Source: a virus
Taxonomy: Duplodnaviria > Caudoviricetes
Length of the DNA: 64,000 bases
Virus record (IMG/VR): IMGVR_UViG_3300014204_000111
Location: 96,001 to 160,000 of that record
Direction: 5' to 3' (one strand)
How positions within the stretch are numbered: position 1 is the first letter of the stretch; each line of letters starts with the position of its first letter. The notes beneath the pieces are model-generated. The model was not told the origin of the DNA. It was given only the letters and a program-made list of their open reading frames with translations, and did not search any database. A program made the translations under genes and the position numbers. Below are positions 38,839 through 63,050 of the stretch, one piece after another.

Positions 38839-41664
38839 ATGGCTTATACAAATGCTGTCTATTTTTTAGATTATGAATTAGGTTCTGATGCAGCTCGCGC
38901 TGATTTAGTTCCATCATCTTATTCTAATAATGGAAGTGGATTAGTTCGTGTTACAGTAGGTAGCTTAGGTACACCAAATATAGTTACAGATGCAGTAGTA
39001 ACTATTGCTGGTACTACTGGAAGTATATATGCTGGTTCATGGAAAGTTACAGTTATTAATTCTACTACAATAGATTTACAAAACTCTACTTATACATCTA
39101 ATCCAGCTACTAAAGGAACCTGTGTCCCATTTGGAGGTGATTCATGGGCTAATGCATGGAAAACTATCACTACAGGTGCAACATCAACAAGAATAGCGGC
39201 TGGTGATACTGTACGTATTGCTAAATCTCCAGCTCCAATAAATACTGGAGTTACAGGAAAATGGACAGCAGGCCCAGTAGGTGCTTCTGTTTATATAACT
39301 GGGACAAGTAATAATGCGGGGTCAATTAGAATCACGGCTGCTGGACATGGATTAGTTACTGGTGATGTAGTTTATATTACTGGTGTGTATGGTACATTAG
39401 AAGCAAATGGTGCATGGCTAGTAACTTATGACAGTGCTACTCAATTTACCTTACAAAATTCTGTTTATACTAACGCTTGGTCATATGGTGGTACAGTAAA
39501 AAATATAAATGCTAATGCTGTAATATTATCATCTGCTTTAACCACTACTATTGATAATTGTGAATCTCCTGCTGGTTTAGATGATTGGGTTTCAAAAAAT
39601 AGCTCAGCAGTTGCTCATGTACACGTTCCTGCAACAGACGGAAAACAAGGTGATACATGTATGCAAATTACCTCTCCACTTATACCAGCAAAAAATACTC
39701 TTTATGCTTATAAAACTGTAAATTCATTAGATTTATCATCAAAACAAAAAATTACATTTTGGTTTAAAAATGCCGTAACTGTACTTGCTGACCAATGGAG
39801 AATATGTCTTTGTTCTGATACTGCTGGAGCTACTATTGTAGATTCGTTTATTATACCAGCGGTTGCATGTTATGATGGTTATACAATGCGTTGGCAACCA
39901 CTTACTTTATCTCAAACTGTTACTACACTTACTGGTGTAGTTTTTAGCGATGGTGGAGGTGGAAGCTCAGTTATTGGAACTTATGCTTCACATGGATTAA
40001 GAAGTGGACAATCTATTACTATTTCTGGTACTACAGATTATAATAATACTTATACTATTACGGTCACAGGTGCTGATACCTTTACTATAGCTACAGCCTG
40101 GATAGGTGGAGCTGATAATATTGGTAATATTAGATTAAACTTAGGCGCAAACATAAAGAGTGTTGCTCTTTATAGTGGTAATAATGCGACTGTACCTACA
40201 ACTAATAAATATGTTAGATTAGATAATATCCAAGCTACTACAACTAATGGAATAAATTTACAAAGTTTAATTAGTAAAAATAGTGCTGAACAAGGAGGAA
40301 CTGAAGGTTGGTATGGTATTCAATCGATTAATGGGACAGTTGTACTATTAGACCAATCTACCGCAACAAAATCAGACTCTACTTATATTAGTGGTTACTT
40401 TGGAGCTAGTGCTGCTGCTGATGCAGTATATATTAGAGAAACAATTAAAACTTCAATGGCAGCTTCTAATGGAGCTATAATACAAGCTGTACAAAATAGC
40501 GGTTCTCTTGCGGGAGGTAATATTAGTTTCTTAGGAGGTTATAATACTTCCAGTGCCAATAACTGTGATGGAGAAACTTATTTTGATGGATTAAATGGTA
40601 TGGGATATGGGATATATGCTACTGCTAAATCCTATATAACATTTAGCAATATTAATACTTATAGGTATGATACTGGTTATTATTTAACTTCTGCATCACA
40701 TTATTGTACTATTCAAAGTAGTAGTAATATAAATAATAATAGCACTACAGGATTATATGTTAATAGTTGTAATTATTTTACAATTACTGCGCTCGCTAAT
40801 ACTAATAGTAATGGAGGCGGTGGAATAGGATTTACATCTTCTCTTTATGGAACTTTTACTACTATAGGTAATGTTACAAATAATGCTGGAATAGGAATTG
40901 ATATTTACGGCATGTCATTTAGTACATTTAATACTATTACTAATGCAAGTGGTAATCAGGGAGGATTTGGAGTTTGTCTTCGTCCATTCTCTTCTTCTTT
41001 TTCTGTCAGAAATAAAATTATGAATCTTACTGCTAATTATAATTCTAACTATGGTATTCGTTTATATGACCAAGCAGATAATAATTTAATTTGCAATCTA
41101 AGTACTACCGGAAATATTACTGGTGGAGTTTATTGTGATGGACAAAATAATTATTTTCGTAATTCATTAATTAATGAATCTTCAGAAATAGTACAATTAT
41201 CATCTCAATATGATTATTATATATATTCTTGGAATCATGACCGTGTAGCTGGACATCATAAAATATTTACAGATGGCGGAACTATTGATTGTCAAGATGA
41301 TGTTGTTTATACTGCTGGAGGATTTGCTTGGAGATTTATTCCTGCGGCAACTAGAATTGCAGCATATCCATTAAAATTAAAAATTGCAGAAATTGCCGTT
41401 GTTTCTGGAAGAACTTATACAATATCAGCTTATTTAAAATTAGACCATAGCACAAATGTTGCAGCAAAACTAGTTATTCCTGGTGGATATTTAAGTGGAA
41501 TTTCTACTGATGTAACAGCAAATACTCCTACTAACACTAATTGGAATAAAGTCTCTTTAGCCGCTATTACACCAACAGAAACAGGAATATTACCAGTAGA
41601 AGTATGGGCTTGGTATGTGGCTGGATTATCGAATATTTATGTAGATACACTCTCCATAGAATAA
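38839..41664 (+). CDS. Tail fibre/spike-like protein with parallel beta-helix
   Basis: G/T/S/N-rich; repeated HGL.(T/S)G..(V/I).I(T/S)G modules; GIY/NN..G beta-helix repeats; possible C-terminal carbohydrate-binding domain. Confidence 0.7.
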   Translation: MAYTNAVYFLDYELGSDAARADLVPSSYSNNGSGLVRVTVGSLGTPNIVTDAVVTIAGTTGSIYAGSWKVTVINSTTIDLQNSTYTSNPATKGTCVPFGGDSWANAWKTITTGATSTRIAAGDTVRIAKSPAPINTGVTGKWTAGPVGASVYITGTSNNAGSIRITAAGHGLVTGDVVYITGVYGTLEANGAWLVTYDSATQFTLQNSVYTNAWSYGGTVKNINANAVILSSALTTTIDNCESPAGLDDWVSKNSSAVAHVHVPATDGKQGDTCMQITSPLIPAKNTLYAYKTVNSLDLSSKQKITFWFKNAVTVLADQWRICLCSDTAGATIVDSFIIPAVACYDGYTMRWQPLTLSQTVTTLTGVVFSDGGGGSSVIGTYASHGLRSGQSITISGTTDYNNTYTITVTGADTFTIATAWIGGADNIGNIRLNLGANIKSVALYSGNNATVPTTNKYVRLDNIQATTTNGINLQSLISKNSAEQGGTEGWYGIQSINGTVVLLDQSTATKSDSTYISGYFGASAAADAVYIRETIKTSMAASNGAIIQAVQNSGSLAGGNISFLGGYNTSSANNCDGETYFDGLNGMGYGIYATAKSYITFSNINTYRYDTGYYLTSASHYCTIQSSSNINNNSTTGLYVNSCNYFTITALANTNSNGGGGIGFTSSLYGTFTTIGNVTNNAGIGIDIYGMSFSTFNTITNASGNQGGFGVCLRPFSSSFSVRNKIMNLTANYNSNYGIRLYDQADNNLICNLSTTGNITGGVYCDGQNNYFRNSLINESSEIVQLSSQYDYYIYSWNHDRVAGHHKIFTDGGTIDCQDDVVYTAGGFAWRFIPAATRIAAYPLKLKIAEIAVVSGRTYTISAYLKLDHSTNVAAKLVIPGGYLSGISTDVTANTPTNTNWNKVSLAAITPTETGILPVEVWAWYVAGLSNIYVDTLSIE

Positions 41665-41929: not shown

Positions 41930-42847
41930 ATGAAAGATTGTTTACTTGTTGGGTCAATTGGAAGTTTAAAAGCTGCTGCTTTAACAATAGGAACGTTTTA
42001 TGCCCTTCAAAGTGAGGGATATAATATCATTGGAATGACTGGAGCAAGTGGAGGTTCTTTACCTTTACCATTGCTAGGTCAAAACTTACCAATGAATCAG
42101 GTAATCGATATTTTTAAGAAAATTCCTGGTGACTCTATACTTGATATGGATATCACTCAACAAGGGATAGATTGGATACGAAAAAAGTTTGGTATTCCTC
42201 GTAAAGGAGATAAGCCTTTTACTGGTTTATATAGAGGTAATGCATTAAGACAAACACTTTTGAAGATGTATAAAGAGAATAATGCACAAACATTTGAAAG
42301 CGCTAAAATACCGTTTCTTGTTGTTGCGACAAAAATTGCAGTAGCCAGAGATAGAGTAACAAACGACTCTTCAGTGTTTTTGAATGCAGTTACTCATCCT
42401 AGACATACAATTTTTAAACAAGGAGATGTTGTTAGTCCAATAAGAGGCTCTACCGCTATCCCTCTAGTCTTCAAAGAAGAAGAGATAAATGGAGAATTGT
42501 ATTTAGACGGAGGTATTGTAGACGCTATACCAATTTTACCTGCATTGCAACATTTTGGCCCTTATGATGTATTTATAGCAGATGCTGCTTCAACTATTTC
42601 AGAAGAACCACTATATGCAGACGAAGTAGATTCAGTCATTGAAATTATGATTGCTACTATCTATACGATGTTTAGAGACGCAACTTTAACGAAGATTGAG
42701 GACGCCCTCAAAATCTTAAGTCTTCACAATAAAAATATGTATAGAATTAGAGCAAATATTAAAATCAAAATGACAGAAACTGAAAAAATGAGTGAAGCAA
42801 TATTAGAAAGTTATTATACTGCTAAGGCAACAATTAAGGCGATATAA
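41930..42847 (+). CDS. Patatin-like phospholipase
   Basis: GASGG nucleophile elbow, STAIPLVF, YLDGG. Confidence 0.9.
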   Translation: MKDCLLVGSIGSLKAAALTIGTFYALQSEGYNIIGMTGASGGSLPLPLLGQNLPMNQVIDIFKKIPGDSILDMDITQQGIDWIRKKFGIPRKGDKPFTGLYRGNALRQTLLKMYKENNAQTFESAKIPFLVVATKIAVARDRVTNDSSVFLNAVTHPRHTIFKQGDVVSPIRGSTAIPLVFKEEEINGELYLDGGIVDAIPILPALQHFGPYDVFIADAASTISEEPLYADEVDSVIEIMIATIYTMFRDATLTKIEDALKILSLHNKNMYRIRANIKIKMTETEKMSEAILESYYTAKATIKAI

Positions 42848-48776: not shown

Positions 48777-49170
48777 TCTTATTCTGCTCTATAGGAAACC
48801 ATTTGGTGACGAGTATGTTTCTGCGGATAGTCTTTTTGATGGTAAGTATAATATATATGAATTATTAGATATGTTTCCTGAAGCTTATCTTTTATTGGTT
48901 AATGATACAACAGAATATAACTTAGAACAAGTAATTAATAGAACTCGTTTAAATCAATATTTTAAAGTTGACGATAAAAATGAAATGCCTTGTGTTAATT
49001 GTAAGGCTGGAAATCCTGTAGATAGAGAATATTGCTATAAATGTGGTTATAAAAATAAATATTATAGTGTTACTAAATTTCTTAGTGACTCTTTTAGTAA
49101 AGCAATGTCTACAAAATATTATGTACTTTATGAATTTTGGGAAGACCAAAGACACAGAAGTATAATCTAA
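48769..49170 (+). CDS. Zn-ribbon hypothetical protein
   Basis: CVNC...CYKCG. Confidence 0.65.
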   Translation: MNNLILLYRKPFGDEYVSADSLFDGKYNIYELLDMFPEAYLLLVNDTTEYNLEQVINRTRLNQYFKVDDKNEMPCVNCKAGNPVDREYCYKCGYKNKYYSVTKFLSDSFSKAMSTKYYVLYEFWEDQRHRSII

Positions 49171-49181
49171 GAGGATTGATA

Positions 49182-52100
49182 ATGACTCCAGAAGAATTAA
49201 TTGCTGCTAGACAATCTGTTCTTGACTCTTTACAAACATTTAGAAAAGAGAATAATCTTAGTCCGGTTTTAGACCCTAGGGGAGAGACTCCAGAAACTAG
49301 AAACACGCATAATATACAAAATATTTACCAACAAACACGTTATGGGCAAGAATATAGACATCCAGATAATCCATTTTTCCCTCCTGCTAATGAAGAAGAT
49401 TTTGGTCATGGAGGATTTGCTCCAGCATTAACACCAGAAGAAGAAGAGAAAATAAATATAAATGATACTTCTGAAACAGATTTACCTAATAATAATAGTA
49501 ATTTTTTATTTCCACAAGAATCTGTCAATCCTGAGATAAATAAAAAATGGAACGAGTACCAAAATAATATAAAAACAAGTAATATAGCTAAAATACATCG
49601 TTTAAACAAAAAACCATATGAACATCCTGATGAAACAATGTATCTAGGTGGAGAAAACTGGTCTCATGGAGGAATAAAAGATTTTATTCAACCATTAGAT
49701 GAAGGTATTTCCTCTTTATTTGATAAAATTACTTTTTCTAGAGATAATATAGAGAGAAACAAAGCAATAACAGAAAAATCTCCTCGATTTAATTCTAAAA
49801 AATTAATGCCAGAAACAGCTAATGCCTGGAGTAATTTTATAACTTCTCTTAAAATTCCTCATGGCGGAGATAATAATATTAATTTAAAAGAATTATTGAA
49901 AGAGACGGGATATGTTCACGGTCAATTAAATCCTGAAACAAAAGAAATATCTTGGAATGCAATACCTGAAAAAAAAGCGTGGACTCATAGTGATTTAACT
50001 AGAGAAATACCAGGAATAGTTTTAGGTGGTATACAAGGTATTGTACATCCTAAAACAAAAAAAGAACATTTAAATATTTCTTGGGTTGGTACTCCAGAAC
50101 ATTTAAGAAATCAAGGATTTGCTACTACATTAGAAACAGAAGCACATAAATTAGCAAAACAATCTGGATATGGAGGGCTATATTCTGATGAACAATTACA
50201 TCCTGAATTTACAAAACCAATTCATCAAAAACTAGGTAAACCATATACTCATTGGGGTAAAGAAGAATATTTCGGACATGGCGGAATGAAAGAAGATTAC
50301 ACTCATGTAGGTAATTATATAGGAGAAGTATTCAAACAACATCCAGATAGGAATATAGCTATTACACGCTTAAAAGATGAAGGTGTTATTAGTGGTAATC
50401 CTTCTTCTGGAAAAGATAAACAAGTATACTCTTTAAATACATTTTTACATCCTGAAACAGGCGATATTCAGCGTTTTAGAGGTGGAGTGCTTAAAGTAGT
50501 TCATCCTAATCAAGGTAGATATGCACAAGATGCTATGTTGGAAGAAGTTACTTCTTCTCAATTATATCCTAATGTAACTGTACCTGTTCATGCATATGAT
50601 AATCATAATTATAATTGGGCAATTGCGGATAAAGTAAAGCCTTTAATTTCTGGGTCAAGAGAGTATATTTTTGGGCAAGACCCAGATATGACAAGTTCAC
50701 AAAAATATGATGCAAATCGAAGAATAGAAGAAGGACAATCAAAATTAGAGGATTATTTAAATCGTTCTAGTCCAGAATTTTTACAAGAAATTTCTAAGAT
50801 AGGTGTTAAACCAGCAGAAACAGAGTGGGCTGCTAATTGGGGTATAACACCTGTTAGAAATGAACAAGGAAATGTTGTTAGAGACCCAAGAACCAAAAGA
50901 ACTCTTAAGAAGTTAGTCTTATTAGATTCTTCAAGAGCTGGACTAAATAAAGCTGTTCCTACTCCAGAAGAGATGATGAACACTATGTATGGACAAACTT
51001 TTGAAAAACTCCAAGAATTACAATTAATTGGTAAAAAACCTCTTGGAGAAGGAATGAGAAGAGTAGTATATCCTACTGCTAATCCAGGTATTGTTGCTAA
51101 AAGAGCAAAAATAAGTCCATCTGGTAAGGCTCATGTAGGAATGAACAATAATGGTGATGAAAGAAATAAATATTTAACTTTAAAAAATCAAGGATTAGAT
51201 AAACATGTAGCCGAAGTTTATGGATTAGTTCCTATTAAAGATAATAACATTCTTTTGCAAGAAAGAGTGCGTCCAATAGATATGGGAATTAAAGATGACG
51301 ATAAAATTTATGAAAAATATAACAAGCTTATTTCACCAGATATGCAAGATTTTTTTACTAATAGATTAGGAATTAATGATATTCATCCAGGAAATATGGG
51401 GATTAAAAAAGATAAAGAGACTGGAGAAAAATATCCTGTAGCTATTGATATTCCTAATAATATGGGTCATGGTGGAGAGAAATATGTTGGTCGAGATTAT
51501 GATAAAGTTTTAGAATGGCTAGAGAATACTCCGCGTGATGAAGTTACGGCACAATTAAAACCATTAGGTAGTGGTAGACATAGAGCAGTATATGCTTTTC
51601 CTAATAAATTTGCTAAAGAGCAATTTGGAGATATTTATCCAGAAATTGTATATAAAGACCCTGTGGCGTATCAAGGAACTCCTGCTAACGAAAGAGAAAT
51701 GAGAAATTGGCAACAATTAAAAGAACAGGGGAAGGCAGAATTAGCCGCTCCTGTTGTTGCACAAGCAAGATTAAAAGGTGGATATAGAGTAGGTATTTTA
51801 CAGAGAAGAATTAATCCTTTTCATGGTGATAAAGCCTTTGGTCAAAATACTCCGTGGGAAAGAGATGAAGAATTCACAAACGCAGGACTTAAAGATAGAG
51901 TTGGTTTTAATTTTGGTTTAACTAGAGTAATGCCAGATGGTTCATTAGGACAAAAAAGAACAGTGCAACATGATATAGCAGGTGCTCTTAACAAGGCAAT
52001 TAATGATTATGATGAAGTTGGAAATTTAATTAGAAATTCTAAACTAGAACAATTCAGTTCAATGCTCAAATTTATGGGACGAGAAGGTAAAGATAGAAGG

Positions 52101-55064
52101 GTTGGAACTTTAGACCATAAAATTGCTCAAAATTTATTAGGCAAAACTTATGCAGATTTTCTTAAAGTTAAACCAATAGTATTTAAAATTCCTATGGCAA
52201 ATAGTTGGGAACCTAACGCGAACAACATGGAGTATGAAAATTTTATGAATAAATATAAGGGACAAGAACTTGTTGTTCCAACTTTAGCTTCTTTTCATAC
52301 AAATGATAATAAGGTTATCAATATTCAACCTAAAGTAAATCCATTTAGGTCAGAAAAACAAATGATGCGGACTTTAACTTCTGATAGAGAGAATGAACTT
52401 TATGGAAAAACTGGATTACATGATTTAGGTTATCATAATTTAGCTAATACTAAAATAACAGATAATGGAGTATTAACCGACCATAATTCTGTAAGACCGT
52501 TTGATTATGTACATGGTGGAGATAAAAAGATTAGTTATGATACCAAGGGGCGTTTTATAAACTCTGGTGTTATGAGAGAAGTTCATCAATCTGCATTAAA
52601 TCCAAATCATGTAGTAAAAATTCCTTATGGAAGAGATGGAGAAGAGAATAATAGGGCAGAACGTGCTAGATATTTGAAATTAAAAAAATTAGGATTAACA
52701 GGAACTGGAGATTTAGAAAAAGATTTGACTATTGATATTCATGGTTTTGACCCTGAATCAGGTAGAAGTGTTGCTGAAAAAGCATATCCTATTCCGGGTT
52801 ATTTAGCAGAGTCAATATCTAGAGATTTAAGAACTGGGGGTAAAGCTGAGAATTTCCCTGAAACACTAAAAGATAGGGTACTACAATTACGGGAAATAAC
52901 GCGCAATCCTATGAATAGAAATATAAGTGATTTACATGGAAGTAATGCAATGTTTAATTCTCCATATAAAGGAGACTTCAATAATGAAGATGAATTTGTT
53001 AATTTTGCATCAAAACATTTAGTAACTGTAGATTTCAATGCAGGACATGATGGAGATAAAAATTCTTTATCTGAATTATTAAAAACTACTAAATATGTAT
53101 ATGGAGAGTTAAATCCTAAAACTAAGGCTATTAATTGGAATTCTATTGACCCAGTTGATGCTCTACCATTTAATCAGTTTACTAAGGAAAGTCCCCGTAT
53201 ATTATTGACCAATAGGTATGGTTATATACATCCTGAAACTAAGCAAGAGCATCTTACTATTTCTTGGGTTGGAGTTCCAGAAAAAATGAGAAAAAAGGGT
53301 TTTGCTACCGCATTAGAAACTGAAGCACATAAGTTAGCCAAACAGTCTGGATATGGAGGATTGTATTCTACACATCAAAATCATCCAGAGGCTACCAATT
53401 CTATTCATCAAAAATTAGGCAAAGTTATACAAGATAAAGAAGGTGCTGAATTTTTCAATAAAAGTAGAGAATATCATTGGCCTCTTGACCCTCTTGACCC
53501 TTCTTTGCCAACTAAACAGCCAATTACGGATATTAGTGCTTTACGTCCAGAATTTGCACAAGCAATTACAGAATTATTTAAACAAGCTAAACAACACGGA
53601 TATGATTTATATATTAGAGAAACATTTAGAACTAGACCTCGCCAAGATGAACTAAATAAGGAATGGCATGCTGGTCAAACTGGTTATGCACCTGATATTT
53701 ATGATGAACGTGGTAATTTAAATATTGATGATGCTAATTTTGCTCATGGACAAGGATTAGCTGCTGACATAGGAATTAAAGGATATGAAGAGAATGAAAC
53801 ACCTATTCACCATCAATTACATAAATTGCTTTTTAATATTAATCCTCAAATTATATCAGATAAGGTAATCCAGGGCGATGAAAATCATTATGAAGCATCA
53901 GACCAATATAGACAAAGTGTTGAAGTAGATTTAACTAAATCTCCATTTTATACTGAATATGTAAAGCGTTATGCTAATCCTACTCCGCAAGAATTGGATA
54001 AACCAGGAACTCAATTGCCAGAACAAAGTATGTTAAAAAGTATATTCGAAGCATTTGGTGTCGTTAAGGCTCTTTATTCTGGCCCAGACGATTCTTATGC
54101 ATATAGAGAAGGAGAAAATCCTCATCTAGATAATTCAAGAGCAACACTAGAAGCTATTAAAAATACTAAACTAGGTAAAAGAAGTAATTTTACAATTAAA
54201 AAACAATCAACATCTCCTCAAGTGTCGTTATCTCAATCTCCAGTTGTAACTCAACCAAGCCCTACTTTGTCTCAAGTAAATTTTACGTCACCTCAGAAAA
54301 TAGCTCCTCAATTATCACCTGATTTAGCTAAAGTTGCCACTGGATATAGTGATATATTAAGTAAATTAAGAGAACAACCAACTAGAAGTATGCCTCGACA
54401 AACAGATACATCAGGTGGATATGAATCTCCTATTCTTCCTAAACCTTCTCAGTTAGGTATGAGTGTACCTATGAGTCAATCTAAATTAAGAGATACTGGT
54501 CAAGGTTATACAGATAAACCTGGGGATAGAAGTCCAATTGTTCATCAATTAGGACAGAATCTTTTTGGAGAGACAGAATCTCAACCTAAAAATCTTAATT
54601 TATTCGGAGAATCATTTCCAGAGATACCTTCAACTCAAGAAACACAACCTAATGTTGGTTCTTTATTTGATGCTTCTTCACCATCTTTATTTGACTCTAA
54701 TACTATTCAAAATATGAGATATGGAGAAGCTGATATTCAATTAAAGAGAGAGAAAGAACAAGAAGCTATAAGACAAGCTCAACTTGAAGAACAAAAACAA
54801 CAAGAACTTCAAAGTAGACAAGCTCAAATACAATCAATTTTTAATAAAAATCCTCGTGATGTTGGAGGATTTGCCTATGATAAACTTAAAGAAGAGAATA
54901 AATTAGGTGGATTTGGAGGTATTTTAGCTCAAATAGCTGATAAAATTATTGGCCCTGCAACAGCTCCTCTTGGTGGCTTCAGCTTCGAAGAACAAAGAGC
55001 TAAAAATATGCTTGCTCAAGAAAAAAGAAATTTAGCAAATGAAATTAAAAAACGTCAAATATAG
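49182..55064 (+). CDS. Giant multi-enzyme protein: 2 GNAT + 5 kinase-like + M15 peptidase modules
   Basis: GNAT RNQGFAT/RKKGFAT; kinase G.G..R.VY, V.K, N..E, DxxxxN, hhD; M15 ETFRT..RQ, HGQGLAAD, DENHYE. ATG 49182 follows GAGGA. Confidence 0.85.
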   Translation: MTPEELIAARQSVLDSLQTFRKENNLSPVLDPRGETPETRNTHNIQNIYQQTRYGQEYRHPDNPFFPPANEEDFGHGGFAPALTPEEEEKININDTSETDLPNNNSNFLFPQESVNPEINKKWNEYQNNIKTSNIAKIHRLNKKPYEHPDETMYLGGENWSHGGIKDFIQPLDEGISSLFDKITFSRDNIERNKAITEKSPRFNSKKLMPETANAWSNFITSLKIPHGGDNNINLKELLKETGYVHGQLNPETKEISWNAIPEKKAWTHSDLTREIPGIVLGGIQGIVHPKTKKEHLNISWVGTPEHLRNQGFATTLETEAHKLAKQSGYGGLYSDEQLHPEFTKPIHQKLGKPYTHWGKEEYFGHGGMKEDYTHVGNYIGEVFKQHPDRNIAITRLKDEGVISGNPSSGKDKQVYSLNTFLHPETGDIQRFRGGVLKVVHPNQGRYAQDAMLEEVTSSQLYPNVTVPVHAYDNHNYNWAIADKVKPLISGSREYIFGQDPDMTSSQKYDANRRIEEGQSKLEDYLNRSSPEFLQEISKIGVKPAETEWAANWGITPVRNEQGNVVRDPRTKRTLKKLVLLDSSRAGLNKAVPTPEEMMNTMYGQTFEKLQELQLIGKKPLGEGMRRVVYPTANPGIVAKRAKISPSGKAHVGMNNNGDERNKYLTLKNQGLDKHVAEVYGLVPIKDNNILLQERVRPIDMGIKDDDKIYEKYNKLISPDMQDFFTNRLGINDIHPGNMGIKKDKETGEKYPVAIDIPNNMGHGGEKYVGRDYDKVLEWLENTPRDEVTAQLKPLGSGRHRAVYAFPNKFAKEQFGDIYPEIVYKDPVAYQGTPANEREMRNWQQLKEQGKAELAAPVVAQARLKGGYRVGILQRRINPFHGDKAFGQNTPWERDEEFTNAGLKDRVGFNFGLTRVMPDGSLGQKRTVQHDIAGALNKAINDYDEVGNLIRNSKLEQFSSMLKFMGREGKDRRVGTLDHKIAQNLLGKTYADFLKVKPIVFKIPMANSWEPNANNMEYENFMNKYKGQELVVPTLASFHTNDNKVINIQPKVNPFRSEKQMMRTLTSDRENELYGKTGLHDLGYHNLANTKITDNGVLTDHNSVRPFDYVHGGDKKISYDTKGRFINSGVMREVHQSALNPNHVVKIPYGRDGEENNRAERARYLKLKKLGLTGTGDLEKDLTIDIHGFDPESGRSVAEKAYPIPGYLAESISRDLRTGGKAENFPETLKDRVLQLREITRNPMNRNISDLHGSNAMFNSPYKGDFNNEDEFVNFASKHLVTVDFNAGHDGDKNSLSELLKTTKYVYGELNPKTKAINWNSIDPVDALPFNQFTKESPRILLTNRYGYIHPETKQEHLTISWVGVPEKMRKKGFATALETEAHKLAKQSGYGGLYSTHQNHPEATNSIHQKLGKVIQDKEGAEFFNKSREYHWPLDPLDPSLPTKQPITDISALRPEFAQAITELFKQAKQHGYDLYIRETFRTRPRQDELNKEWHAGQTGYAPDIYDERGNLNIDDANFAHGQGLAADIGIKGYEENETPIHHQLHKLLFNINPQIISDKVIQGDENHYEASDQYRQSVEVDLTKSPFYTEYVKRYANPTPQELDKPGTQLPEQSMLKSIFEAFGVVKALYSGPDDSYAYREGENPHLDNSRATLEAIKNTKLGKRSNFTIKKQSTSPQVSLSQSPVVTQPSPTLSQVNFTSPQKIAPQLSPDLAKVATGYSDILSKLREQPTRSMPRQTDTSGGYESPILPKPSQLGMSVPMSQSKLRDTGQGYTDKPGDRSPIVHQLGQNLFGETESQPKNLNLFGESFPEIPSTQETQPNVGSLFDASSPSLFDSNTIQNMRYGEADIQLKREKEQEAIRQAQLEEQKQQELQSRQAQIQSIFNKNPRDVGGFAYDKLKEENKLGGFGGILAQIADKIIGPATAPLGGFSFEEQRAKNMLAQEKRNLANEIKKRQI

Positions 55065-56529
55065 TATCAGAAACATGAAATGTAGATAGACAGAGAGACG
55101 ATACAATATCATCGAATCCTGTTCTTGGCTTATATTTAATATTACCACTATCTGTTGTTTCCGCTCTATAACCCTTGAGTTCTTTTTTTATCTCTGGAAT
55201 ATCCCATAATGCTAAAGCTTCTGAAGCTAATTTGACTCTTAATTTTTCAATCATTTCATTTTTATTTTGATTAGTAAATTTGAGACCTTTAATTACTATT
55301 GATACACCATATTTATCTTTTAATCTTTTAGCTACTTCTCTTGGAACAGATGAACCTTCTCCAGTTGCGTCTATAATTACTTTTAATTTTCTTTTACCAT
55401 TATGTTGTCTAAATATAAAATCAGTAATTCTCTCTATATTCTCATCGTCTCCAACTTGAGTATATCTTTGGAATCCTACCATTTTATAATCCCCAGTTAA
55501 TGCTGTACAAACTGTATAGTCATGTAATCTAGCATAGTCAATACCAATGGTAATTTCTTCGTTCGGAGCTGGGGTATAAAATTGACTTTTTGTTTCTCCG
55601 TATTCTATCCCCTTTTTGAACTCTACAGGAAACCAAATATCCTCATTAAACGAAAATACATCTCCCGCGATAGTATCAAACTTAGCTTCGTACTCTCTTG
55701 CAAAAATAGCTCTCGAATATGGAGTTCCTGTAGATTCGGCCTTTCTTTTCTCTTCATAATACTCAGAGATATCAGCAAAAGGATTCTCTAGAATATGCAT
55801 TCTAAATCCTCTCGCTCTTAATCTTGCTATCTTACTTGCTGCTTGATATGCTGTAATATCTCCAGACTTAAACATCTCTCTAATCTTATGTTCATCTTCT
55901 TCTGCTAATTGAAATCTCTCTGCAAAAAAGTTTATCTCTCTCGGAGAACTAATAGCAAACAATCTTCCCATATTATTTTCACGGGCAAGAGATGGTTTGA
56001 TTAAGTTAAAAGCGTCATCTTTAAGAATTGCAGCTTCGTCTATAACTACTAAATCAGCACTTTTACCAATTAAAGAGTCAGGATTATCTCCAGATAAACA
56101 AGTTAAAGTACTATGTTCAGAACCCATAGATGTACTTAAATGCATATCTTGTCTTGTATTTGAGCCAGAAACTTTGATGCTACGCAAGAAGTCACTTTTA
56201 ACAAAAGCAGTCCAAACTGTATCAAAAACAATTTTGGCTAACTGGTAAAAAGGAGCTACTAAAAATATCTTTCTGTTAGGTAAACAAAGTTCTTCTAATA
56301 CTCTTATAGCAGCAGTTTGAGATTTACCACTTCCACGAGAAGCAGTAATATACATTTCTTTTGCAGGACACATAAGAAGTTTTGTTTGTTTGTCAAATGG
56401 CACGTATTCTTCGCCAAATGACTCCCACAACTTCATCCTGTCCTCTCCTAGCCCTAAAGCTTCATCTCTATCTGTTAGTGGTGTTTTGTTTAAAAGTGCT
56501 CTAGGATTACTCGTCAGTGTGTTCTTCAA
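55045..56529 (-). CDS. terL: Terminase large subunit
   Basis: ASRGSGKS Walker A, VVIDEAA Walker B, ISSP, REYEA, GIDYARLHDYT, IDATGEG, DDIVSS. Confidence 0.95.
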   Translation of the reverse strand: MKNTLTSNPRALLNKTPLTDRDEALGLGEDRMKLWESFGEEYVPFDKQTKLLMCPAKEMYITASRGSGKSQTAAIRVLEELCLPNRKIFLVAPFYQLAKIVFDTVWTAFVKSDFLRSIKVSGSNTRQDMHLSTSMGSEHSTLTCLSGDNPDSLIGKSADLVVIDEAAILKDDAFNLIKPSLARENNMGRLFAISSPREINFFAERFQLAEEDEHKIREMFKSGDITAYQAASKIARLRARGFRMHILENPFADISEYYEEKRKAESTGTPYSRAIFAREYEAKFDTIAGDVFSFNEDIWFPVEFKKGIEYGETKSQFYTPAPNEEITIGIDYARLHDYTVCTALTGDYKMVGFQRYTQVGDDENIERITDFIFRQHNGKRKLKVIIDATGEGSSVPREVAKRLKDKYGVSIVIKGLKFTNQNKNEMIEKLRVKLASEALALWDIPEIKKELKGYRAETTDSGNIKYKPRTGFDDIVSSLCLSTFHVSDTIFDVF

Positions 56530-57344: not shown

Positions 57345-60197
57345 ATGAGAAATTTTAACATCTTAGACATTTTTAAACTAGATTATATATCTGACCGTAA
57401 ATTACGTCAAATGGATAAGGTCATTAGGACTCCCGTTAAAACACGTTCATTAACAACAGAGTTTAGACCTCACGACCGAGACCGTGGGCAGGAAATATCT
57501 GGAGAATATTCATTTCAAATACCTTTTAGACAACAAAAACAGTTATATCAAAGAAATCCGTGGGTTAAGCGTTGTATTGACCATATTTCTTCTGCTGCTG
57601 CTGGATTAAATTGGCATATTATACCAAAAGAAAAATACAGAGAAGAAATGGAAACTGACCAACATATGCAAACAGCTAAGGTATTGGCAGAAGAATTGTT
57701 TAATCGCCCAAATACTTTTAAACAATCATTTAGCGACTTAATTAAAATGATTGTTAGAGATGTTAAAATTATGGATGCTGCTGCGATTGAGAAAGGGAGA
57801 GATTCATTTGGAAGATTAATTACTCTTAAGGTAATTGATGCTTCTACACTTAAAATTGATATTGATGAACGAGGACAAATAATAAAATACGTACAAGAAT
57901 TTAGAGGTAATCAACTTCATGGTATGTATACTATTCCTAATGAACTAGCAAATGCGAGAGACCCACATGGAAGTAGAGGAATTGATTTTGACCCTACTGA
58001 AGTAATATATCTTAGGCTTAATCCTCGCTCAGAAGGGCCATATGGTTCTTCTCCTATAGCATCTTTAGTAGAAGCAATTTATGCTGATTTAGCAACTGAT
58101 ATTAATCTTTATCATTTTCTTAATACTGGTGGTGTTAATACTGGTTATATGAGTGTTGGCCCAAATATTGACAATGACCAAATTGAAAGAATCAAGATTA
58201 AGTTTCGTCGCTCTTTATCTCCTGGTATGAGATATGAATTTCCTATTATATCATCAGAAGATGAAGTTAAATGGGAATCAATGCAAGTTACTAATGTTGA
58301 AGCACAAATGGCTGAATTACAAGGAGAACTAAGAAATAAAATTTTAGCAGTTCTTTCTATTCCACCTAATGAATTAGGTTTATCTGGAAATACTAGAGGT
58401 CAAGTTTATAGTCAGCAAGATGTGTTCTGGGGTAATGCTATTATTCCTATGATGAAATCTATTGCTGAAAAATTTACAAATGAAATTTTAGCGGAATTTG
58501 ACGATAGATTAATGTTTGAATTTTTACCTCCTTCTGAGTATCAATATGAAGCAATTATGGCTAGAATTACAACTCTTGAACAAGAAGGACTAATTGAAGA
58601 TGATTTAAAGTATCAATGGTTAGGCTTAACTCCTCCAAAAGAACCCACTTATGTTCAAAAGAAAAAAGAACTAGAACTTAGAAAATTAGCTGTTGATGTC
58701 TATATGGTAGAAATGCAAGCACTTGCTCAGTATAAGAATAAAAAATACATCTTAGATGAACCTCGTTTGCAATATCAACAATTACAAGCTGAAACTCAGC
58801 AAATGATGGGTGGAGGACAAGCCTCTCAAGGTGAATTAGACATTCAAAATGCTCAAATAGATGTTCAGAAAAAACAAATAGAGCTTGAAAAACTGAGAAT
58901 TATGTCTGACCAGAAGATGTTTCCAGATGAGATGGAACTAAAGAAACTTCAAATTCAAGCACAAATTCTTGAAGCTCAAAGCATGATGGCTCAGAATGGA
59001 AGTAGTTCAAATACTCCTCAAGCTCCATTAACAATGGGCGAAATTGTACATGGTATACAAAGTGGAGAAATAAATACACAAACTCTAGCAGTTATGATTG
59101 AAAAACATTTGGTTGACCCTGAACAGTTAAAACTCATTAATGTTGCAGATAGAACTGTCTCAGGTATAATAAAGGATGCAGAAGAAGTTGCTACTCAAAA
59201 ACAAGCTATTCAATTTAAGAAAGAAAAAATAAATATGGATAGACAAAAAGAGCAAATGAAATATCAGCAAGCTGGCGCTCAACATCAAAACAAAATGGCA
59301 GATGCTCAATTTGACCAACAAAAGATGGGAATTCAAAATCAAGGTGAGTTACAAAATGTTATTGCTCAGCAAGAATTAGCTAGAAATCAGTTAGGTATGA
59401 GACAACAACAAATGGAACAACGTGGACGCTTGCAACAGCAAAATATGCAAGCTCAACAAGCTCTTGGACAACAAAAGACCCAAGTTCAACAACAACAGTT
59501 GTCTCTTCAGCAACAGCAAATGCAACAAATGGCCCAAAATCCTCAAATGGCTCAACAAGGAATGCAACCTCAGCAACAAAATTCTGCTAATTCTCAACAA
59601 CAATTACAGGAATTAAGACAATTAACTATGAATAAATCTATTTCAGATAGATTAAATTTCTTTAAAACCTTACCTAATATTTTAGGAAATGGACAAATTA
59701 CTGATTCTAAAATAAGTGAACCTCATAAATCTAGAATAAGTCCAGATATTACTCATTTTGAGAATGATGTACATGATTTTGATTTAAGTAAACATGTAGA
59801 GAATAAAATAGAATCATTAGAATCTAGAAATCCTGCTGTGTCTATGTCTACTCCTTCTTTAATAAAAAATCAAGCTATGGGTGTTGATGTCAAAGATAAC
59901 AATCCTGTAGATATGGCTATTAAACAAATTTCCGAAGTTGGAGAAATGGATGCTATTCATCCTAATACAGGGATAAAGAGCAATCAGAATGTTTTAGGTC
60001 AACATACAACTGGAGATGGAGCGCATAGTGCAACAACTATTTCTAGTCCATCTCAAGAAGGAATTGCTGCAATTAGACCTCTTAATATAAAGAAGCCTTT
60101 ATCATTCCAAGCAACTGACCCTCAACCAGGACATGCCAAGCTTGATATAGATTCAGCGCAAAAGAAGCATAATACTAAACCAAAAAGTGAAATATAA
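57345..60197 (+). CDS. Portal protein with long Gln-rich C-terminal extension
   Basis: WVKRCID.I, FNRPN, YGSSPI, I..VLSIPP.ELG and F....I.P portal motifs in the first ~430 aa. Confidence 0.9.
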   Translation: MRNFNILDIFKLDYISDRKLRQMDKVIRTPVKTRSLTTEFRPHDRDRGQEISGEYSFQIPFRQQKQLYQRNPWVKRCIDHISSAAAGLNWHIIPKEKYREEMETDQHMQTAKVLAEELFNRPNTFKQSFSDLIKMIVRDVKIMDAAAIEKGRDSFGRLITLKVIDASTLKIDIDERGQIIKYVQEFRGNQLHGMYTIPNELANARDPHGSRGIDFDPTEVIYLRLNPRSEGPYGSSPIASLVEAIYADLATDINLYHFLNTGGVNTGYMSVGPNIDNDQIERIKIKFRRSLSPGMRYEFPIISSEDEVKWESMQVTNVEAQMAELQGELRNKILAVLSIPPNELGLSGNTRGQVYSQQDVFWGNAIIPMMKSIAEKFTNEILAEFDDRLMFEFLPPSEYQYEAIMARITTLEQEGLIEDDLKYQWLGLTPPKEPTYVQKKKELELRKLAVDVYMVEMQALAQYKNKKYILDEPRLQYQQLQAETQQMMGGGQASQGELDIQNAQIDVQKKQIELEKLRIMSDQKMFPDEMELKKLQIQAQILEAQSMMAQNGSSSNTPQAPLTMGEIVHGIQSGEINTQTLAVMIEKHLVDPEQLKLINVADRTVSGIIKDAEEVATQKQAIQFKKEKINMDRQKEQMKYQQAGAQHQNKMADAQFDQQKMGIQNQGELQNVIAQQELARNQLGMRQQQMEQRGRLQQQNMQAQQALGQQKTQVQQQQLSLQQQQMQQMAQNPQMAQQGMQPQQQNSANSQQQLQELRQLTMNKSISDRLNFFKTLPNILGNGQITDSKISEPHKSRISPDITHFENDVHDFDLSKHVENKIESLESRNPAVSMSTPSLIKNQAMGVDVKDNNPVDMAIKQISEVGEMDAIHPNTGIKSNQNVLGQHTTGDGAHSATTISSPSQEGIAAIRPLNIKKPLSFQATDPQPGHAKLDIDSAQKKHNTKPKSEI

Positions 60198-61040: not shown

Positions 61041-61921
61041 TGTCAACAGCAGAGCAAGTGATGCAACAAGCCGAAACCTATAAGTTATTCAAAGGTATTA
61101 TTAATAATTTTGAAGAAGATTTGGTACAACATGGTTATGAGCTTGATGAACAAGATAAAGTAAGAGTAATTAACTTGGTTATTGATACGACCCAGAAGCT
61201 TTTTAAAGGGTCTACAGATGAAGAGTTAATTGATTTTCTTGGTCGTTATGATAGAAATATTAGAGCAACTGCTCTTAATACATTAAATAATGAATATGAA
61301 CAAGAAGCTTTAACTAAATCTATGCAAGAATTGACATATCACCCAGACCATGTTTACGCTCATCAAGTAGAAGAGTCTGGAAAAGATGTTTATCCAGAAA
61401 TGCTTAAGAGCAGATGGAATGAGTTGCCTGACGAACTTAAAAACCATATGGAACAATATCATATGGAAAATAGATTATGGCACACTCATACAGATAATTT
61501 GGCTGACCCATTGATTTTTGGTAAATCAGTTGAAACTAATATGGTTGAACGTAACTATATTCATGAAATCGCTCACCGTCTTGACGAAAAAGCTGTAAGA
61601 GGCGAAGAGGCAGATGATGAAGAGATTTCAGTATATTCTGAGCTTTATAAAGCTGAAATTTATCCTGGTATGGTTGCCAGTGATGGTGTGGTTATTACTC
61701 CTGAGTTAGCTGAACATATGAATGGTATTCACGGCCCAAGATATCAAGCTCATCCTTTAGAACTTCCTATGATTGGCCCTTCTGGTTCATTTGTTGAATT
61801 TGAGCATTTAAAGAAATCAATGCCTGATAGACCTACATCATTTAAAACTGAGAATGAAGTTTCTATTTTGAAGCAAGAACTTTTTAATCTCGGCTACGAG
61901 ACTCAAAAAAAAAATAGCTAA
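61040..61921 (+). CDS. Acidic head-region protein (scaffold-like), possibly extended by slippage at A10
   Basis: Seven hydrophobic-x-K-[S/A/G] motifs; ends in an A10 run. Confidence 0.7.
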   Translation: MSTAEQVMQQAETYKLFKGIINNFEEDLVQHGYELDEQDKVRVINLVIDTTQKLFKGSTDEELIDFLGRYDRNIRATALNTLNNEYEQEALTKSMQELTYHPDHVYAHQVEESGKDVYPEMLKSRWNELPDELKNHMEQYHMENRLWHTHTDNLADPLIFGKSVETNMVERNYIHEIAHRLDEKAVRGEEADDEEISVYSELYKAEIYPGMVASDGVVITPELAEHMNGIHGPRYQAHPLELPMIGPSGSFVEFEHLKKSMPDRPTSFKTENEVSILKQELFNLGYETQKKNS

Positions 61922-63050
61922 ATCCAGTCCTAATCCTGGCTGGTCAGATGATACTTACGAAGAAGACGATGATTCTGCACGTCAAGAGGCAGAAGAGTTA
62001 AGTTTAGGTCAAGATACTCCTTCTCAAGCAACTAAAAGATTTCTTCCAGCAGAAGGTCATGCTGATGGACAACATCCATATTTAAGTAACCCAATTCATT
62101 CTTCATTCTCTCATTTACAACAATATCTTCCTGAACTTAATCAGCATTTAAATGCATACTTACAGCAAAATCCTAATTTTGACCCAAAGAATATACTTGC
62201 AGTTAGAGGAGCGGCATTAGAAGCTCTTCATCATCATCATACTCTAAATCACCTAAATCCTACGCCTCCTCCGAATATACCTCAAATAGTTCAACAAGCA
62301 GGAGCGCTTATCCAAGGTCATCTTGATTCAGAAAAGAAAAATGTACAACAATCTTCACAATCTTCATTAAGTAATCAAACTTGGGATAAGAATGATACAA
62401 CAGATATTTTCGGTAAACCTACTTGGTTCCCACAACAAAAAGGTCACGGAGGTATGGGAGAATTTTCTTCAAACTATATAGCTCCTTCAATGAATAAGTC
62501 TCTTAATTCTTTTGTCCAAATATCTATGCTTAAAGGTATGCTAGATAATTTACACACTAAACATAATTACGGACACGGAGGAGAAATAGATGTATTAAGC
62601 GGAAAAACTGTTAATCCAAAAGATTTACCACAACCTGTTCAACCAATGCCATCTTCTCCTATTGCTGTACCTAATGACCCTTGGAAAGAGGATAGGGAAG
62701 CACAAAAGTATGAGAAAAAGACTTTGCCACCTCATTCAGGAGATGGTTGGGGTTTAGCAGATGATATTAGAGGAAATTTAACTGATGAACAAGAGATGGA
62801 TGATGCTAATAATGACCCTAATAATGGACTAGCTCCAGAATTTAGGACAAAAACTGTTCAATCAGACCCTAAGCAATCTCAAAGAATACAATCATTTCCT
62901 GGCAATTTATATCCTAGTAATCCATCTATGGTTCCTTCGACTCCTGCACCACAAGTATATAATCCCAATGTTAAACCAAGTAATGTAGATATACTCCCCG
63001 GATTAAGAGCAATGATAGAAAGTGCTAAAGTAGGACAGGCTGGTAAATAA
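61914..63050 (+). CDS. Startless +1-frame continuation of the 61040 gene (includes ORF 62454-63050)
   Basis: Frame open 61872-63050 with no ATG/GTG/TTG before 62454; reads IAKSSPNPGW... immediately after the A run. Confidence 0.7.
   Translation: MAKSSPNPGWSDDTYEEDDDSARQEAEELSLGQDTPSQATKRFLPAEGHADGQHPYLSNPIHSSFSHLQQYLPELNQHLNAYLQQNPNFDPKNILAVRGAALEALHHHHTLNHLNPTPPPNIPQIVQQAGALIQGHLDSEKKNVQQSSQSSLSNQTWDKNDTTDIFGKPTWFPQQKGHGGMGEFSSNYIAPSMNKSLNSFVQISMLKGMLDNLHTKHNYGHGGEIDVLSGKTVNPKDLPQPVQPMPSSPIAVPNDPWKEDREAQKYEKKTLPPHSGDGWGLADDIRGNLTDEQEMDDANNDPNNGLAPEFRTKTVQSDPKQSQRIQSFPGNLYPSNPSMVPSTPAPQVYNPNVKPSNVDILPGLRAMIESAKVGQAGK

Follow-up and report, generated by a model that had tools for sequence, protein, structure and literature searches.

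Within a 64,000-nucleotide stretch of phage DNA (the window; bases 96001–160000 of the 220,861-bp virus record IMGVR_UViG_3300014204_000111, Caudoviricetes), a single large gene (49182–55064, + strand) encodes a protein of 1,960 amino acids that carries a tandem array of five highly diverged kinase-type modules, M1 to M5. Four of these, M2–M5, appear to be minimal protein-kinase-like domains that retain their catalytic residues and stop shortly after the metal-binding aspartate. The product as a whole looks like a polyvalent multi-enzyme protein of this 221-kb phage. We favor the reading that M2–M5 are minimal kinases and that M1 is a decayed relative, in a polyvalent protein that would be delivered with the virion and act on host proteins, and assign it a probability of roughly 0.55. 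A preliminary description, made from the sequence alone, had proposed five minimal kinases in this region; four of them proved solid, while M1 is doubtful in view of its weak similarity to the others, its poor structural model, and the absence of a fold match.

Catalytic residues, fold, and paralogy of the modules

All modules lie within a single open frame (49137–55064, + strand) that has no internal stop; residues are numbered here from the TTG at 49137, so that the last residue is 1975. M2 (50973–51464; amino acids 613–776), M3 (51465–51992; amino acids 777–952), M4 (51993–52508; amino acids 953–1124), and M5 (52509–53042; amino acids 1125–1302; the most diverged), all on the + strand, each keep a glycine loop, a β3 lysine, an αC glutamate, a D-x4-N catalytic loop, and a metal-binding aspartate. 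Every motif listed in the preliminary description was located where it had been placed: the catalytic loops are DIHPGN (748), DRVGFN (920), DLGYHN (1096), and DLHGSN (1265), and the metal-binding aspartates are part of AIDI (769), QHDI (944), PFDY (1121), and TVDF (1297), while the corresponding motifs of M1 are ETEWAANWG (561) and LLDS (595). The key residues of M3 are a glycine loop at 811, Lys840, Glu854, Gln889, Asp920, Asn925, and Asp946; those of M4 are Lys1017, Glu1032, Gln1064, Asp1096, Asn1101, and Asp1123; and those of M5 are Lys1161, Glu1175, Asp1265, Asn1270, and Asp1299, with the glutamine lacking at its conserved position. The metal-binding aspartate is directly followed by I-P in M2, I-A in M3, Y-V in M4, and F-N in M5. 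As the few positions that are invariant at 20–28% identity include the catalytic ones, the modules appear to have been under selection for catalysis.

The metal-binding aspartates of M1–M5 (597, 771, 946, 1123, and 1299) are spaced 174, 175, 177, and 176 amino acids apart, a period that is maintained despite insertions at differing places: between β2 and β3 in M3 and M4, in a longer helix-D region in M2, and after αC in M5. A motif-to-motif spacing of about 173–178 amino acids had been claimed earlier, which holds for this DFG-equivalent aspartate (174–177) and is slightly looser for the catalytic-loop aspartate (169–176; 172, 176, and 169 amino acids across M2–M5).

The suggestion to predict a structure and search it with Foldseek was followed for M1 (see below) and for M2, the module supported by a phrog_4301 match (see below), an AlphaFold2 model, and Foldseek and VIA-align comparisons; M3 was assigned from motifs and homology, and M4 from motifs and homology to M3. 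The model (amino acids 622–778; built from an alignment of M2 with M3–M5 and 57 stand-alone relatives) had a mean predicted local distance difference test (pLDDT) score of 80.8 and a predicted template modeling (pTM) score of 0.74. It consists of β1–β3, a long helix, β4–β5, two helices, and a β hairpin, and places the glycine loop at 637–639, Lys655 in β3, Glu675 in αC, Gln708 in β5, Asp748 and Asn753 in the catalytic loop, and Asp771 after the β hairpin. Foldseek returned 72 matches in the PDB at E ≤ 1e-3, and among the matches listed, all were protein or protein-kinase-like (PKL) kinases or pseudokinases. The best were OspG of Shigella (4bvu and 4q5h; E = 1.3e-5, TM score 0.55) and NleH2, followed by JAK pseudokinase domains, MLK1, Nek7, MEK1, a RIO-type kinase, and APH(2''), with APH(2'')-Ia at rank 29. 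VIA-align gave Z-scores of 9.4–10.5 over 131–148 of 157 residues to LCK, PLK4, IRE1, PINK1, PRPK, OspG (10.1), and HopBF1 (9.4). Among viral models in BFVD, 110 matched the M2 fold at E ≤ 1e-3; many of these are uncharacterized phage proteins of 140–220 amino acids, some are T7-like entries named "protein kinase" (E around 1e-4), and one is a 412-amino acid protein that combines a GNAT with an M2-type fold. It is therefore well supported that M2–M5 adopt a protein-kinase-like fold, M2 by its model and M3–M5 by homology. When PDB sequences were searched, neither the region nor the module or stand-alone profiles gave a significant match, and no kinase appeared at E ≤ 10.

M2–M5 are, as judged from sequence comparison, true paralogues. 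By pairwise blastp, M3 and M4 share 28% identity over 167 amino acids (E = 5e-15) and M2 and M3 25% over 135 amino acids (E = 1e-5), in agreement with the low identity noted earlier, while M2 and M5 match at E = 4e-4. Smith-Waterman z-scores, computed against 300 shuffles, were 23.6 for M3–M4, 8.6 for M2–M3, 4.5 for M2–M5, and 3.4 for M3–M5, whereas control comparisons of modules with the GNAT and N-terminal segments gave −1.6 to 1.2. Leave-one-out profile alignment with hhalign recovered M2 at E = 4.7e-6, M3 at 1.2e-4, M4 at 0.031 (this module being tied directly to M3), and M5 at 4.7e-3, with a score of 23.4 for M5 against a shuffle maximum of 16.5. No similarity among the modules is left at the DNA level, suggesting that the duplications are old.

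In a phmmer search of amino acids 380–1306 against 1.84 billion representative proteins, only the giant protein itself was found. Since this search detected no relatives of the modules beyond the modules themselves, the array is most economically explained by an old duplication within the gene, as the tandem duplication proposed in the preliminary description would have it; the subsequent diversification toward different substrates, likewise proposed there, is a conjecture. Neither megablast nor tblastn with the region and M2 gave a match among 50,697 phage records, even at E ≤ 1; a word-indexed search among long proteins again found only the giant protein itself, recorded with 1,960 amino acids as P0002; the module profile detected nothing among proteins of 89–308 amino acids or in five Bacteroidota genomes; and locus searches with the array, the large terminase (TerL), and the portal in viral or metagenome contigs revealed no relative.

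M1 (50274–50972, + strand; amino acids 380–612) is a degenerate kinase-like segment, about 50 amino acids longer than the other modules, whose fold was not confirmed. Its Smith-Waterman z-scores were 4.5 to M5 and 3.1 to M4. In one alignment, it is co-linear with M4 over amino acids 387–505, with a glycine loop (GKDKQV), Lys453, Glu470, Asn567, and Asp597, and with Thr562 where the catalytic aspartate would be expected. Its best local match, to M5 (amino acids 449–484), lies in another register than the M4 alignment, for which reason M1 may be a composite remnant of two partial N-terminal lobes (N-lobes), which could explain the extra 50 amino acids. Profile comparison of M1 by hhalign gave E-values of 0.24–0.31, indistinguishable from shuffles, and its model (pLDDT 61.7) contains a disordered stretch where β4–β5 should be. 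Fold searches with this model yielded a best Foldseek E-value of 0.63, and a wide VIA search gave no Z-score of 5 or more. The earlier proposal that M1 is a pseudokinase is a reasonable guess, with Thr562 standing in for the catalytic aspartate.

Truncation after the metal-binding aspartate and a stand-alone family

The modules lack the activation segment and αF–αI (subdomains VIII–XI) of canonical kinases: the N-terminal segment of the following module begins 3–8 residues after each metal-binding aspartate. The VIA alignments span the M2 model, and their target ranges end at residue 388 in LCK, 161 in PLK4, and 164 in OspG, which we take to be near the DFG motifs of these kinases. Because the alignments stop at the DFG region, the part of the C-terminal lobe (C-lobe) beyond the aspartate appears to be truly absent from the modules. 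That the modules end a few residues past the DFG-equivalent aspartate, as had been described, is thus agreed upon by the module borders, the structural alignments, and the stand-alone family introduced below. The OspG chain in the structures (169–171 residues) runs only a few residues past the aligned position 164. Full-length OspG has about 196 amino acids and carries C-terminal helices.

The only outside sequence relatives of the modules are free-standing proteins that likewise end at the metal-binding aspartate. The PHROG profile phrog_4301 matched the whole giant protein (E = 2.7e-16), M2 (4.4e-8), M3 (2.3e-3), and M5 (0.037); M4 and M1 alone gave no match to this profile, M4 being joined through M3. 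The stand-alone family comprises at least 158 proteins of 118–124 amino acids, which bear only "hypothetical" names and no Pfam domain. They show the same motif order as the modules and end 1–2 residues past the metal-binding aspartate, and their invariant positions are the same lysine, glutamate, asparagine, and aspartate, with the glutamine nearly invariant. Members were found in large phage contigs (e.g., L124:1495–1935 on the − strand and L125:6001–6366; proteins P0003–P0122) and in 1 of 401 Bacteroidota genomes, in which the phrog_4301 profile detected a single gene (E = 3.3e-21). One member sits among small early-type genes on a 145-kb phage contig. Compared with the modules, these proteins are about 55 amino acids shorter and free-standing, and lie among small early-type phage genes. 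The modules went undetected in a search with a hidden Markov model (HMM) built on the narrow stand-alone family, and hhalign of the module profile against the stand-alone profile gave a weak match (E = 0.0044) that covers the N-lobe only; the link between the two therefore rests mainly on phrog_4301. The family of about 120 amino acids looks like the smallest free-standing kinase core.

Kinases of this class have been predicted before. Iyer, Burroughs, Anand, de Souza, and Aravind (2017, J Bacteriol; PMC5512222) described "polyvalent proteins", giant multi-domain proteins of phages and plasmids that they argued to be delivered with the DNA, and among these a monophyletic group of kinases without the whole C-terminal subdomain but with the active site kept. 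This group has a glutamine conserved within its final N-lobe strand and stand-alone versions in Bacteroidetes, and GNATs and DD-peptidases also occur among polyvalent proteins (PMC5512222). The modules resemble these kinases in being part of a giant multi-domain protein, in the loss of the C-terminal subdomain, and in their intact catalytic residues. The glutamine is present in M2 (Q708), M3 (Q889), M4 (Q1064), and the stand-alone family, but not in M5; a glutamate before strand 2, in the glycine loop, is found only in M2 (GEG) and M4 (REG), and a conserved histidine before the catalytic aspartate only in M4, the positions of both being matched by description only. Unlike the kinases of PMC5512222, the modules form five tandem copies, while the only multi-copy arrays mentioned in the text of that paper consist of ART domains. 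Compared by description only, the array thus seems to fit this group in its main points: C-lobe-less kinases in phage polyvalent proteins are an already known class, and the tandem array and its sequence isolation would be the new elements.

The best structural matches, the minimal effector kinases OspG, NleH, and HopBF1, share with the modules the lack of subdomains VIII–XI and, if the giant protein is ejected as proposed, delivery into a target cell, but differ in being type III secretion effectors aimed at eukaryotic cells. No sequence homology of the modules to OspG or NleH was detectable by phmmer or by profile searches of PDB sequences. Functionally, the closest proteins of solved structure are OspG and NleH. 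Both retain activity despite having no subdomains VIII–XI, and OspG is switched on by binding of E2~ubiquitin (PMC12756638). A further point of comparison is the kinase of phage T7 (T7K, gp0.7), which serves host take-over and disarms many defenses by mass phosphorylation (PMC13645617). T7K, a single-domain kinase that is expressed early, carries a DPV motif as well as a shut-off/DNA-binding domain (PMC13645617), whereas the modules have isoleucine, tyrosine, or phenylalanine after the aspartate, no shut-off domain, and a structural-gene context. The modules could not be placed in the T7K family either, as PHROG scans gave phrog_4301 and no other significant family for them.

Architecture and genomic setting of the giant protein

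The likely start of the giant ORF is the ATG at 49182, which is preceded at 7 nucleotides by a ribosome-binding site (AAGAGGA). Promoter-like sites are not enriched within the 49137–55064 frame (32, compared with 31.3 in shuffles), and no + strand terminator was seen within it, so the frame appears to be one translation unit. Its product is composed of an N-terminal region, a GNAT acetyltransferase, the five kinase-type modules, a second GNAT acetyltransferase, a VanY/M15 peptidase, and a tail, all encoded on the + strand. The N-terminal region (49182–49856; amino acids 16–240), which bears the tripeptide HGG at amino acids 90, 176, and 241, gave no match to any family in the searches made for it.

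The first GNAT copy (49857–50273; amino acids 241–379) matches Pfam Acetyltransf_1 in two stretches, and the second (53043–53471; amino acids 1303–1445) matches it above the cut-off (E = 8.1e-6). The two copies, which bracket the kinase array, are 59% identical over 138 amino acids (E = 3e-54) and 76% identical at the DNA level over 204 nucleotides. They are far more alike than the kinase modules are among themselves, suggesting that the GNAT duplication is more recent than that of the kinases, or that the copies have been homogenized. The VanY/M15-type peptidoglycan peptidase (53472–53996; core around amino acids 1464–1548) matches Pfam VanY just below the cut-off (E = 1.5e-4) and phrog_2649, annotated as endolysin (E = 8.4e-5); its translation shows an H-x6-D motif and a later histidine. 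The tail (53997–55064), as read from the translation, passes from low-complexity sequence rich in serine, proline, and glutamine through a coiled-coil-like stretch to a glycine-rich hydrophobic end, and matched an FG-repeat weakly and nothing else.

Most domains of the giant protein begin with the HGG tripeptide, mostly as [FM]GHGG. It occurs 6 times (49391–49415, 49649–49673, 49851–49871, 50261–50285, 51468–51491, and 52512–52535, + strand), where 0.35 copies would be expected, and 6 copies were not attained in any of 20,000 shuffles. The M1/M2 and M3/M4 borders have no HGG and share G-L-N-K-A or A-L-N-K-A instead. Considering all ORFs of at least 100 amino acids in the genome, four, of which one belongs to the head module, account for 13 of the 15 HGG tripeptides; further HGG-bearing stretches lie at 61872–63047 of the window and at 215968–217880 of the genome (G000:C1). 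HGG may be a processing or targeting signal. Two copies are present in an ORF of 452 amino acids (G000:C1:216001–217360; L126:3002–4360) that has a subthreshold caspase-like match (Raptor_N, E = 0.0068), and the ORF that follows it contains three more. The 452-amino acid protein could be a candidate HGG-site protease.

The phage genome has direct terminal repeats and a G+C content of about 32%. TerL (55045–56529, − strand) lies directly downstream of the giant ORF and is followed by the portal gene (57345–60197); genes for PhoH, a patatin-like lipase, and a RuvC-like resolvase lie upstream. Also in the window are a 941-amino acid protein (38839–41664) with an above-cut-off match to the FCCH domain of the ubiquitin-activating enzyme E1 (E = 5.2e-7) and, after it, a patatin-like phospholipase (41930–42847; E = 1.2e-15). 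Over the whole genome, Shine-Dalgarno cores precede 52% of ORFs of at least 120 amino acids, compared with 10% of random positions. The host may thus be one with strong Shine-Dalgarno use, a trait less typical of Bacteroidota, and a host from that phylum is therefore weakly disfavored, although a stand-alone relative of the modules came from it.

Proposed function and alternative explanations

Under the reading we favor, the giant protein would be made late, together with the head and packaging genes, be carried in the virion, and be brought into the host along with the DNA. Passage through the cell wall would be aided by the peptidase, after which host proteins would become targets of the kinases and acetyltransferases in the service of take-over or counter-defense, as with the T7 kinase. 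Lacking a C-lobe, the kinases may, like OspG, become fully active only when a partner is bound, and cleavage at the GHGG and LNKA motifs that recur at the boundaries may split the chain into separate enzymes. The position of the ORF beside TerL and the portal and its strong ribosome-binding site speak for this reading. An extended version is rather unlikely as a whole: the chain would be packed in the capsid and cut at GHGG/LNKA; DNA entry would be the moment at which four different kinases, each of about 20 kDa, were set free along with a pseudokinase, two acetyltransferases, and the peptidase; host partners would activate the kinases; and the module size of 174–177 amino acids would reflect a packing or ejection constraint, a size limit already suggested in the preliminary description.

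Several observations weigh against the favored reading. Neither MuF nor another known packaging domain was found in the giant protein, whose presence in the virion is a prediction. The prohead protease models PF04586 and PF03420 had no match in the phage genome, which makes cleavage at the GHGG/LNKA borders a conjecture. No kinase model of Pfam or NCBIfam reached its cut-off, the best being YrbL-PhoP_reg with 16.2 of the required 31.5 bits. Among M2–M5, a model was made for M2, and the kinase fold of M3–M5 is assigned from homology, which in the case of M5 is weak. Without αF and the substrate-binding lobe, a kinase may be inactive alone. Finally, no orthologue was found that would show conservation of the array.

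The lack of a detected packaging domain or protease would also be in line with a protein that holds the same enzymes and is not packaged, but acts as a cytoplasmic multi-enzyme or lysis enzyme, with kinases that work late rather than at entry. The match of the peptidase part to a PHROG annotated as endolysin and the occurrence of the stand-alone relatives among small early-type genes, not structural genes, point the same way. However, TerL and the portal are immediate neighbors of the gene, the HGG motif is common to the giant protein and the head-module ORF, and a chain of 1,960 amino acids that joins a wall peptidase to protein-modifying enzymes has the architecture of the polyvalent proteins regarded as injected in PMC5512222; we therefore regard an unpackaged protein as unlikely, if credible. 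The substrates could, alternatively, be small molecules: as kinases of the aminoglycoside, choline, or Kdo type, accompanied by AAC-like GNATs, the modules might, for example, inactivate anti-phage metabolites. The D-x4-N loop of M2 (DIHPGN) does resemble the APH-type motif, APH(2'')-Ia is among its Foldseek matches, and the GNAT copies match AAC(6') weakly (E = 0.007–0.011). Those AAC matches, however, score 16 bits where 140 are required, APH ranks structurally behind OspG, NleH2, and eukaryote-type kinases, and the helical C-terminal subdomain with which APH and choline kinases bind their substrates is absent, making this quite improbable.

We give equally little credence to the idea that the modules are catalytically dead structural repeats, such as those of a head-internal or scaffolding protein derived from former kinases and kept for size or shape. 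A period so strikingly constant despite indels at different places would suit such a role, as would the missing αF and substrate-binding lobe and the loss of the catalytic aspartate from M1. Against this stand the invariant positions, which at 20–28% identity include the glycine loop, lysine, glutamate, aspartate, asparagine, and aspartate, and the stand-alone relatives, which keep the same residues invariant. The best PDB sequence match of the module profile was 3l9d, a putative GTP pyrophosphokinase (E = 0.094 over 54 residues), and a RelA/SpoT-like identity was dropped once the kinase fold was seen. That the repeats have another nucleotide-binding fold, such as that of a RelA/SpoT-like nucleotidyltransferase, is very hard to credit, as the 3l9d match is not significant, all 157 residues of the M2 model are covered by its kinase matches, and the Foldseek and VIA results are headed by nothing but kinases.

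If the favored reading, with M2–M5 as minimal kinases in a virion-delivered protein, is true, four diverged and apparently competent kinases and two acetyltransferases in one protein, probably delivered with the DNA, would be a much richer arsenal than the single kinase of T7. Ending at the metal-binding aspartate, the modules would also be the smallest known kinase cores, in a series supplied by nature that could help to define the minimal fold needed for phosphotransfer. In addition, the link through phrog_4301 offers a functional lead for at least 158 "hypothetical" phage proteins that have no Pfam domain.

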